Shown in pieces: positions 1,715-2,470 of a DNA stretch of 64,000 nt. The notes beneath the pieces were generated by a model. That model saw only the letters and a program-made list of their open reading frames with translations, was not told the origin of the DNA and made no database searches. Positions within the stretch are counted from its first letter, which is position 1, and each line of letters begins with the position of its first letter. The stretch is from Euprymna scolopes (taxonomy: Eukaryota), in NCBI GenBank assembly GCA_053919585.1, contig CM132806.1, one strand, 5' to 3'. The position numbers and the translations under genes are program-made.

Positions 1715-2470
1715 TAAGATTTTTATCTCCTATTTTAAAATGTGGATCGCCGGGACTCGCTCCGACATGTAGATCATCCATTTCGTCTGCTCGTAATGTC
1801 TGGATTGGTACATTGACATTTGTTTACTCCTTCTTCCTCTCTTTCCTCTCGCAATCTTTTCCCACTTCGTAGCATTCGGTCACTTATACCGCTTGTTGCT
1901 GCGTCGATAAATGGGTTACCTTGAAATATATTAGATATTACAGCACTTCTTGGTGTATCAACGTTATGTAGACAACGTAAGAATTTTATATCTGCACTGA
2001 GTGTGCCAATGTTAGTGTTGTAGTCCAAGTCGTGTTGTATGCAGCATTCGTCTACTTCATCATGGTTTCTATAGTAAAGTCAGAAGTAAACGGACCATAA
2101 TAATTAATGTCTGTAAATTGTATTACTTATTTGGAGTTCATTGAGATAGTTTTGTAACTGTATCTTTATAATGTTCGCATTGTTCACCACATTAGTGTGC
2201 AGTTTCGTTTTCTGCTATTGGATCAAATGAAACTGATAAAGGAAAATGGTTCCTTCGGTTGTTCAGTGTTGATTGATGTTGGTTCTCGAGATGTTGCGTC
2301 GTCAGAGTTCCCGGACCGAGTGAACAACCTAGCTGAGACGGCTTCTATTTATACTATAGTTTTCACTTACATCAGAAATAAATCAATTTCAGACGTTTTA
2401 CGTTTCCAAACATTTTTTTCGATTTATGTTGATAACCGTATATTACATTTAATTTCTGAAATGTTGTATC
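1715..2470 (-). pseudogene. Candidate endogenous parvovirus/densovirus-like VP1 fragment with PLA2 domain (frameshifted)
   Basis: Minus-strand manual translation: INYYGPFTSDFTIE/[frameshift]/DEVDECCIQHDLDYNTNIGTLSADIKFLRCL. It has a YxGP Ca-loop (2091-2102), HDxxY (HD at 2029-2034) and ADxxF. An upstream TATAAATA lies at 2346-2353(-). Confidence 0.6.

Follow-up and report, generated by a model that had tools for sequence, protein, structure and literature searches.

A twice-broken endogenous fragment of a VP1-type capsid gene, probably parvoviral, in a repeat-rich stretch of Euprymna scolopes DNA

The phospholipase A2 (PLA2) domains of parvoviral VP1 proteins form group XIII and are described as being without stabilising disulfides, a property which has been hypothesised to ease passage through the fivefold pore (PMC12455919). 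In the same source, two disulfide pairs inferred from group III PLA2s were engineered into AAV9, namely C1 (L53-A72) and C2 (A71-R103). The VPs of chapparvoviruses are reported to be without PLA2 (PMC6631224) and to start at the jelly roll (PMC12115719), and endogenous copies of these viruses are known in arthropods and fish (PMC6631224). A PLA2 is also contained in the capsids of Oomyviridae, a family often mislabelled as parvoviruses in GenBank (PMC13426907), and the parvovirus-like PLA2 encoded by adintoviruses ends in a C-terminal part that is basic and pX-like (PMC8502044).

The locus described here lies in a window (the whole stretch of 64,000 nucleotides that was analysed) of AT-rich (GC 0.34) animal DNA that is full of repeats and has 8 N-gaps over its 64 kb. 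Sequence, homology, breaks, flanks and sharing between samples establish that the minus strand of the window holds an endogenous fragment of a VP1-type capsid gene. The features of the locus are as follows.

1123..1572, minus strand: 150-codon frame, by its translation Penelope GIY-YIG endonuclease-like
1582..1699, minus strand: left flank, a 118-bp piece of a very high-copy repeat, 82% identical to 3001-3129 and of very high contig depth
1686..1784, minus strand: VP1 segment 3, a shortened Gly/Pro linker and the first jelly-roll strand, where the gene is cut off
1816..2064, minus strand: VP1 segment 2, with D-x-CC-xx-HD-xx-Y, the second Asp and third helix, and a conserved SD-x-ML-R stretch
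1849..1872, minus strand: basic patch after the PLA2, read from the sequence; relatives have a basic patch at the same place
2067..2123, minus strand: VP1 segment 1, the start region and the PLA2 calcium loop (profile positions 4-23)
2124..2470, minus strand: single-copy upstream stretch, with a flat depth of 18.5 in run X1
2346..2353, minus strand: TATAAATA, from its sequence a candidate promoter of VP that lies 230 nt ahead of the VP start
2472..2640, no strand assigned: T15 run followed by GC-rich DNA in single copy (0.53 over 2487-2640), viral terminus or host
2650..3843, minus strand: right flank, by translation a decayed LINE-type element with endonuclease-like frames, which contains the repeat copy 3001-3129

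Homology to VP1 spans 2123-1686 (minus strand) in three segments that together make about 150 codons, with two breaks (tblastn with the relatives described below), and the fragment contains the calcium loop, the catalytic His-Asp, the basic patch and the first capsid strand. The calcium-loop frame runs from 2126 to 2061 (minus strand) and the catalytic segment lies in the next frame, in an ORF at 2079-1777 with its stop at 1776-1774; the His-Asp of segment 2 is encoded at 2034-2029 (minus strand). Break 1 lies between 2070 and 2061, and break 2 between 1819 and 1785. An intron at break 1 was considered and rejected, as the relatives align across it without room for one and nearby GT..AG pairs would remove conserved residues. 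Eight relatives (P0002, P0003, P0005 and P0023-P0027) align to segment 1 from their own residues 1-3 (tblastn), and there is no ATG in the window at the site where the relatives begin VP1. Segment 2 is 62% identical to P0002 over 81 aa, and segment 3 aligns to P0002 residues up to 159. The strand equivalent to that of segment 3 opens the jelly roll in the model of P0004 (E186-200) and aligns to residues 2-11 of 9nek. By analogy with parvoviral VP1, the basic patch is likely a nuclear localisation signal.

When a profile was made from 17 relatives and the window sequence was kept out of it, 2064-1816 matched it with 78.2 bits (iE 1.8e-25), and the window read with X at the breaks reached 111 bits with the same profile. 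Any domain at all was reported for 13 of 20 locally shuffled windows, with a top score of -1.2 bits, and the match is thus far above chance. With Pfam, the separate pieces of the window gave sub-threshold PLA2 matches, the best being PF05826 (E 6.6e-4, 20.2 bits, cut-off 22), and no match to PF08398. The peptides quoted in the preliminary description for the calcium loop, the HD motif, ADxxF and the basic patch are all present on the minus strand, and the frameshift that it placed near 2065 coincides with break 1. Its reading of the locus as a parvovirus-type PLA2 in a VP1 relic agrees with the relatives-only profile, with the extent corrected: the homology passes through the second break and beyond position 1715 to reach 1686.

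A search of 1.84 billion representatives (phmmer, E <= 0.001) gave 9 hits, all of one kind (P0002-P0010). The best of them, P0002, has 181 aa and is 60% identical (E 9e-26), and an N-terminal PF08398, the parvoviral-type PLA2 model, is above cut-off in eight of the nine. Further relatives, P0011-P0027, were added from cluster look-ups and profile searches. Full-length relatives consist of 546-600 aa; the PLA2 is present in the window and in 15 of the 17 aligned relatives, and in most relatives it begins at residue 1-3, which leaves no room for a signal peptide. A word-index search with the window ORF gave one candidate and no hit, IMG/VR scans with five queries (the window ORF, A1, P0010, the 2472-2660 frame and P0004) returned no relatives in any case, and a PDB sequence search with the 50-aa core of the window gave nothing meaningful. 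The ESM Atlas matches of a window piece score 0.85 or less and are leads only.

A tree of 21 rows, drawn for the PLA2 region, joins the window and P0002 as a pair with a support of 88/64 that is not strong, and the branch of the window is 0.9 long versus 0.09 for P0002, as expected for neutral decay. P0002, on an ENA contig of 239,737 nt, breaks off close to the capsid strand where the window fragment ends, and an apparent TA microsatellite follows; this relative could represent an older orthologue, or else have been inserted separately in a similar genome.

The relatives fall into two groups by setting. Those of one group are found on long ENA contigs, from 46 kb to 1.3 Mb, often with several copies per contig, and are presumably endogenous in other animals. 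Those of the other group come from short contigs (1.3-3.8 kb) and look like free virus or unplaced pieces. Intact or partial VP1 copies are clustered, with 3-9 members on one contig, and the multi-copy contigs could hold endogenous arrays in tandem, or capsid genes that have been domesticated. Copies were seen on long contigs for P0004, P0011-P0015 and P0020 (the longest of 1,139,406 nt), on a contig of 835,705 nt for P0019, P0021 and P0022, and on contigs of 46-249 kb for P0023-P0027.

The 2066-nt contig L001 (1-2066) carries VP only, shortly preceded by an E-box at 25 and a TATA-like motif at 72. On its opposite strand an open frame (1866-2066) ends at the VP stop, and this 66-aa frame has no Pfam hit; a near-identical VP is found in a second assembly, on a contig of 2098 nt. 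Neither a terminal repeat nor a hairpin above shuffles was found at the ends of L001, and a circular genome was rejected, there being no terminal repeat and a junction hairpin of only -2.6 kcal/mol. The layout of L001 is possibly ambisense or segmented. With an ambisense layout, the DNA upstream of VP would be the promoter and the genome end, which would fit the TATA box of the window and the absence of NS1 upstream.

Built from six long relatives, a profile aligns with parvoviral VP1 chains along both PLA2 and capsid (9cuz with E 2.5e-11, 4g0r and AAVs). With the 17-member profile, 9nek is ranked first (E 2.3e-11), through the capsid body alone and in two stretches; 9NEK is the capsid of the Syngnathus scovelli (pipefish) chapparvovirus (PMC12115719). 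Searches of the PDB with the capsid body only, or with narrow profiles, found no capsid. The window holds only one capsid strand, and the evidence on the fold comes from the relative P0004, which is 42% identical to the window over the PLA2. The quality of its AlphaFold model is low (mean pLDDT 46.5), although the PLA2 helices reach a pLDDT of about 70-79 and the jelly-roll strands are present. In a structural search of 48,161 chains with this model, ranks 1-19 are all parvoviral capsids, with Z between 8.5 and 11.3 and the subfamilies tied, and residues 1-84 match the PLA2s of rice and bee with Z of 7.9 and 6.5, respectively.

This likeness to the bee and rice enzymes would also be expected if the locus were a processed pseudogene or an exon of a host group III secreted PLA2 (sPLA2), an origin to which PF05826 as the best direct Pfam hit, the CC motif, and the poly-A-like run and LINE pieces nearby would likewise point. 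However, the homology passes the PLA2 into the viral linker and the first capsid strand, all nine significant relatives are of VP1 type, cellular sPLA2 chains match the family profile only at E >= 0.008 compared with 1e-11 for capsids, and the A-run is on the upstream side of the gene instead of downstream of it; we regard a host origin as highly improbable. Even harder to credit is a fragment of a Polinton or adintovirus PLA2X gene. The basic patch after the PLA2 in the window resembles the basic part of the adintoviral protein, whereas the relatives continue into a single jelly-roll parvoviral capsid and not into pX, and no PolB, packaging ATPase or double jelly-roll capsid was found with Pfam in 17 long frames, the sole integrase belonging to an LTR element about 50 kb away. 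The fusion of the PLA2 to a parvoviral jelly roll in intact relatives thus argues against both a host sPLA2 and a Polinton PLA2X. The nearest relatives are PLA2-plus-capsid proteins rather than host group III sPLA2s or Polinton genes, in line with the earlier proposal of an intronless viral capsid-gene fragment between repeat pieces.

The source of the fragment is probably a member of Parvoviridae. The preliminary description had proposed a candidate densovirus, and this assignment is not demonstrated. No NS1/SF3 gene was found in the window, nor any Walker A-type motif in its six frames. The densovirus chains 3p0s, 8tje, 8t9c, 4mgu and 1dnv are all absent from the 60 best of 77 sequence-profile hits. 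By structure, 3p0s is ranked first by Foldseek E-value, and the densovirus Z of 8.5-10.2 is equal to or below that of other subfamilies; Densovirinae capsids thus do not stand above other parvoviral capsids, and the best profile hit is a chapparvovirus. The sequence profile leans to a chapparvovirus shell. Among the top 50 BFVD matches, 47 rows bear a parvovirus or densovirus name, one is called 'parvo-like virus' and two are unnamed.

The same kind of relic could have been left by a virus of Cressdnaviricota with a parvovirus-like PLA2 capsid (Oomyviridae, or parvo-like hybrid) or by a segmented virus, a source that we consider unlikely. For P0004, the first-ranked cluster of the ESM Atlas (named 'Capsid protein', of 496 aa, 61% with PF08398), which we take to be probably Oomyviridae, is mostly Cressdnaviricota, at 0.92, with Cossaviricota at 0.91 and 0.90. 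The PLA2-containing capsids of Oomyviridae and their frequent mislabelling as parvoviruses would favour this source too, as would L001, which carries VP only on 2066 nt with the partner gene unseen. On the other hand, solved CRESS capsids match the P0004 model with Z of only 5.3-6.2 (no Oomyviridae chain being listed among them) compared with 8.5-11.3 for parvoviral ones, the profile matches the chapparvovirus capsid body in two stretches, and the ends of L001 have no terminal repeat and no convincing origin hairpin.

The upstream stretch 2124..2470, where the three minus frames contain 6, 9 and 7 stops, is likely a viral promoter or terminal region. The TATA-like TATAAATA at 2353-2346 (minus strand) lies about 245 nt upstream of the YYGP codons, as had been noted before; the 8-mer has 16 copies on both strands of the whole window, and for this reason it is weak evidence alone. 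No hairpin upstream of the gene is better than shuffles (z 0.42), and the longest inverted repeat there is 7 bp; the ends of the viral genome may have been lost. Between the LINE-type element and the viral region, 2472-2660 (minus strand) gives an Arg/Lys-rich reading; this frame has no Pfam or IMG/VR match.

The left-flank repeat overlaps the last viral codons at 1686-1699. Its part 1631-1683 is identical to the right copy at 52 of 53 positions, and all six listed non-majority states are common to both. The far side thus carries a repeat piece of 53 bp that is nearly the same, which suggests that the join was templated locally, and the left junction would then be a repair event using local sequence; alternatively, both repeats belong to one subfamily. 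The direct repeat of 1582-1699 and 3001-3129 was also considered as an LTR, a Penelope pseudo-LTR or a target-site duplication, and rejected, as it belongs to a very high-copy repeat that continues in the right copy. Judging by motifs, we tentatively take 1582..1699 and 2650..3843 to be LINE-type and 1123..1572 (minus strand) to be Penelope GIY-YIG endonuclease-like. Pfam gave no hit in the five frames tested of the right-flank element, and the Penelope label was not borne out by Pfam or by sequence searches of the PDB.

Part of 1700-2480 is found in 7 of the 24 listed runs, from 3 studies (none of the runs listed with it being an RNA run, which speaks neither for nor against expression), and contigs or reads were compared for four of the 24 (X1, X3, X7 and X10), with a contig likeness of at least 80%. 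In X1, possibly the source of the window, one contig extends over 1655-2800 with no difference and a flat depth of 18.5. Judged by contigs at this likeness, with 71% of X1 covered, the fragment looks single-copy, the sole hint of a second copy being a 68-nt piece with 12 differences at 1919-1986. X3, from another study and of low depth, has 1 difference in about 845 nt, and its part 1965-2275 crosses break 1 with no difference and no gap. X7, from organism B, covers 2001-2263 at a depth of 2-2.8, with 7 differences and no gap at break 1. Organism B also carries 27 extra letters at 2193, upstream of the gene, and one of its contigs spans 2428-2620, across the T-run. The break common to X1, X3 and X7 points to a common degraded ancestor, and the insertion likely predates the split of organisms A and B, given a depth of only 2-2.8 for organism B.

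These samples also bear on whether the locus might be an assembly chimera of contaminating virus and host DNA, as could be suspected from the 8 N-gaps and from a left junction that falls in a very high-copy repeat. We give this very little weight, for the depth is equal on the viral and the single-copy neighbouring DNA, the X1 contig (from what is possibly the source run) crosses both junctions, and X3 and X7 have the same break, which is not carried by live virus. Endogenous viral elements among retroelement pieces yield piRNAs in arthropods, and a relic common to several samples and two organism labels, with a TATA-like box and retroelement surroundings, might have been co-opted as an antiviral small-RNA template or a host promoter. 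The prospect is slim: no polyA RNA read of X10 covers 1726-2415 (among 12 million records, which are 12% of that run, one of six RNA runs and of unspecified tissue), the branch is long with conserved residues lost, and sharing is also expected from neutral fixation.

Elsewhere the window contains other repeats, which may be akin to repeats of octopus and other marine invertebrates. A tandem array of about 3 kb at 19319-22392 has offsets in multiples of 39 nt and long open frames on both strands, and short pieces related to it lie at 17868-18224. A fragmented LTR retroelement pol with protease, RT, RNase H and integrase is found at 51176-54600 (plus strand), and a Tc1/Tc3-type transposase in two frames at 31977-32694 (plus strand). 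Four related non-LTR RT fragments, 76-82% alike, lie at 14286-15084, 18251-19303, 27914-29260 and 44028-44840, with RVT_1 confirmed by Pfam at 27944-28645. Judging by motifs, 5989-6402 (minus strand) is presumably a mariner-like transposase frame, and the 149-codon frame at 16668-17114 (plus strand) presumably a CRE/R2-type restriction-like endonuclease end; Pfam gave no relevant hit for the former and no hit for the latter.

The PLA2 of this lineage differs from its described parvoviral counterparts in its cysteines. The catalytic motif is held by 20 of the 26 fetched relatives, the other six being without that region, and all 20 carry four cysteines: one in the calcium loop, the CC that precedes the HD, and one six residues after the second Asp. 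In the calcium loop, which the preliminary description had read as parvoviral YxGP, the x is Cys in all 20 relatives that hold the domain. The CC before the HD, which it had remarked on as unusual for a virus, is indeed unusual for parvoviruses (PMC12455919), but it is not peculiar to the window copy, as the same 20 relatives keep the four-cysteine pattern. The window itself retains three of the cysteines; among 15 conserved positions checked, 13 are kept, and the two lost are the loop Cys (Cys11 in P0004 numbering) and a nearly invariant Lys (Lys73). The four cysteines align to L52, V70, A71 and K102 of AAV5, which are positions 53, 71, 72 and 103 of AAV9, and these are the same four positions as in the engineered C1 and C2 pairs. 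The absence of disulfide cysteines, a trait of group XIII, is thus not seen here, with four in each of the 20 relatives and three in the window. We predict from the alignment that the four conserved cysteines form two group III-like disulfides. Parvoviral capsids assemble in the reducing nucleus.

In the library table of PMC12455919 (at least 933 rows), each sheet has 13 rows with YCGP, of which 8 are engineered and 5 natural, and CC is found in three of the five natural rows, namely QTZ83157.1 and two WP_ entries; WCGP, HCGP, FCG, CCR, CCQ and CCE, the only other motifs searched, have no occurrence in it. The GenBank protein QTZ83157.1 has the same four-cysteine pattern and resembles P0007 and P0010 by eye. 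The WP_ prefix is used for prokaryotic proteins. The four-cysteine pattern therefore appears to be rare among catalogued parvoviral PLA2s, and it is already in at least one GenBank protein, seemingly unremarked. No description of the locus or of a four-cysteine VP1 lineage was found in the openly accessible literature searched (including PMC11357303, PMC7000223, PMC11945456 and PMC9896142).

We hold it quite probable that the locus is a dead endogenous relic of an unclassified parvovirus, namely a twice-broken 5′ VP1 fragment of about 150 codons. In this account, whose virus family, enzyme role, disulfides, integration route and lack of function we infer, the source virus would have had a VP1 of about 550-600 aa. 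By analogy with known parvoviruses, the PLA2 at its N-terminus would cut endosomal membranes at entry, the basic patch would guide it into the nucleus, and the shell would be formed by the C-terminal jelly roll. A viral genome end carrying the promoter and the VP start would have been joined into a LINE-rich site by break repair, and subsequent neutral decay would have brought the loss of the start codon, two frameshifts, and the loss of one of the four cysteines and of the conserved Lys. More tentatively, and as a reading that we hold less likely than not, the relatives may represent an undescribed animal parvovirus lineage whose VP1 combines a chapparvovirus-leaning shell with a PLA2 in which two group III disulfides are naturally retained, either by separate capture or as an ancestral state, and which entered germlines repeatedly, being intact and multi-copy in some hosts.

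The locus is a routine viral fossil, yet datable because two organism labels share the break. Endogenous parvoviral pieces are common in invertebrates (PMC5013282, PMC6631224), which makes the locus ordinary; the new part is the four-cysteine lineage. If the bonds form and the virus is truly a parvovirus, the lineage would provide natural material on the disulfide and pore question and on repeated entry of PLA2 into parvoviruses. If the reading of the lineage is true, it would be a natural counter-example to the need for a disulfide-free PLA2 in passage through the fivefold pore. The tie to a host gives an animal host for a lineage otherwise from viromes of unknown host.

Compared with the PLA2 of the VP1 unique region in Parvoviridae (group XIII, PF08398; bufavirus VP1 9cuz, AAV5 3ntt), that of this lineage has the same N-terminal place in the capsid ORF, the same loop-to-Asp spacing and D-x5-HD, and is followed in the same way by a basic patch, a Gly-rich linker and the jelly roll. 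Different from them, it is 7 residues shorter after the HD, and the VP1 has only 546-600 aa. Among the tied parvoviral structures, the chapparvoviruses (Ichthamaparvovirus, 9NEK) give the lowest rmsd (4.9) and the highest identity (14%), whereas this lineage has about 170-200 extra N-terminal residues with the PLA2, and so lacks the defining feature of chapparvoviruses, a VP with neither a PLA2 nor an N-terminal extension. The VP1 proteins of 'parvoviridae sp.' (BFVD A0A8A4XDN7 and A0A8E7G216, of 576 and 533 aa) are the top BFVD rows at 19% identity, and these entries and QTZ83157.1 come from viromes of unknown host. Oomyviridae, the parvo-like hybrids of Cressdnaviricota, have a PLA2-containing parvovirus-like capsid (PMC13426907) and are defined by a CRESS-type Rep, the comparison with them being by description only. 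Host group III sPLA2s have a signal peptide and no capsid, whereas in the relatives the PLA2 starts from residue 1-3 and continues into the capsid. The endogenous parvoviral elements of invertebrates (PMC5013282, PMC6631224) are likewise fragmentary, frameshifted and germline-fixed pieces of NS or VP. In contrast to these, the fragment in the window is VP-only and belongs to an unclassified lineage, several relatives of which are intact and multi-copy.
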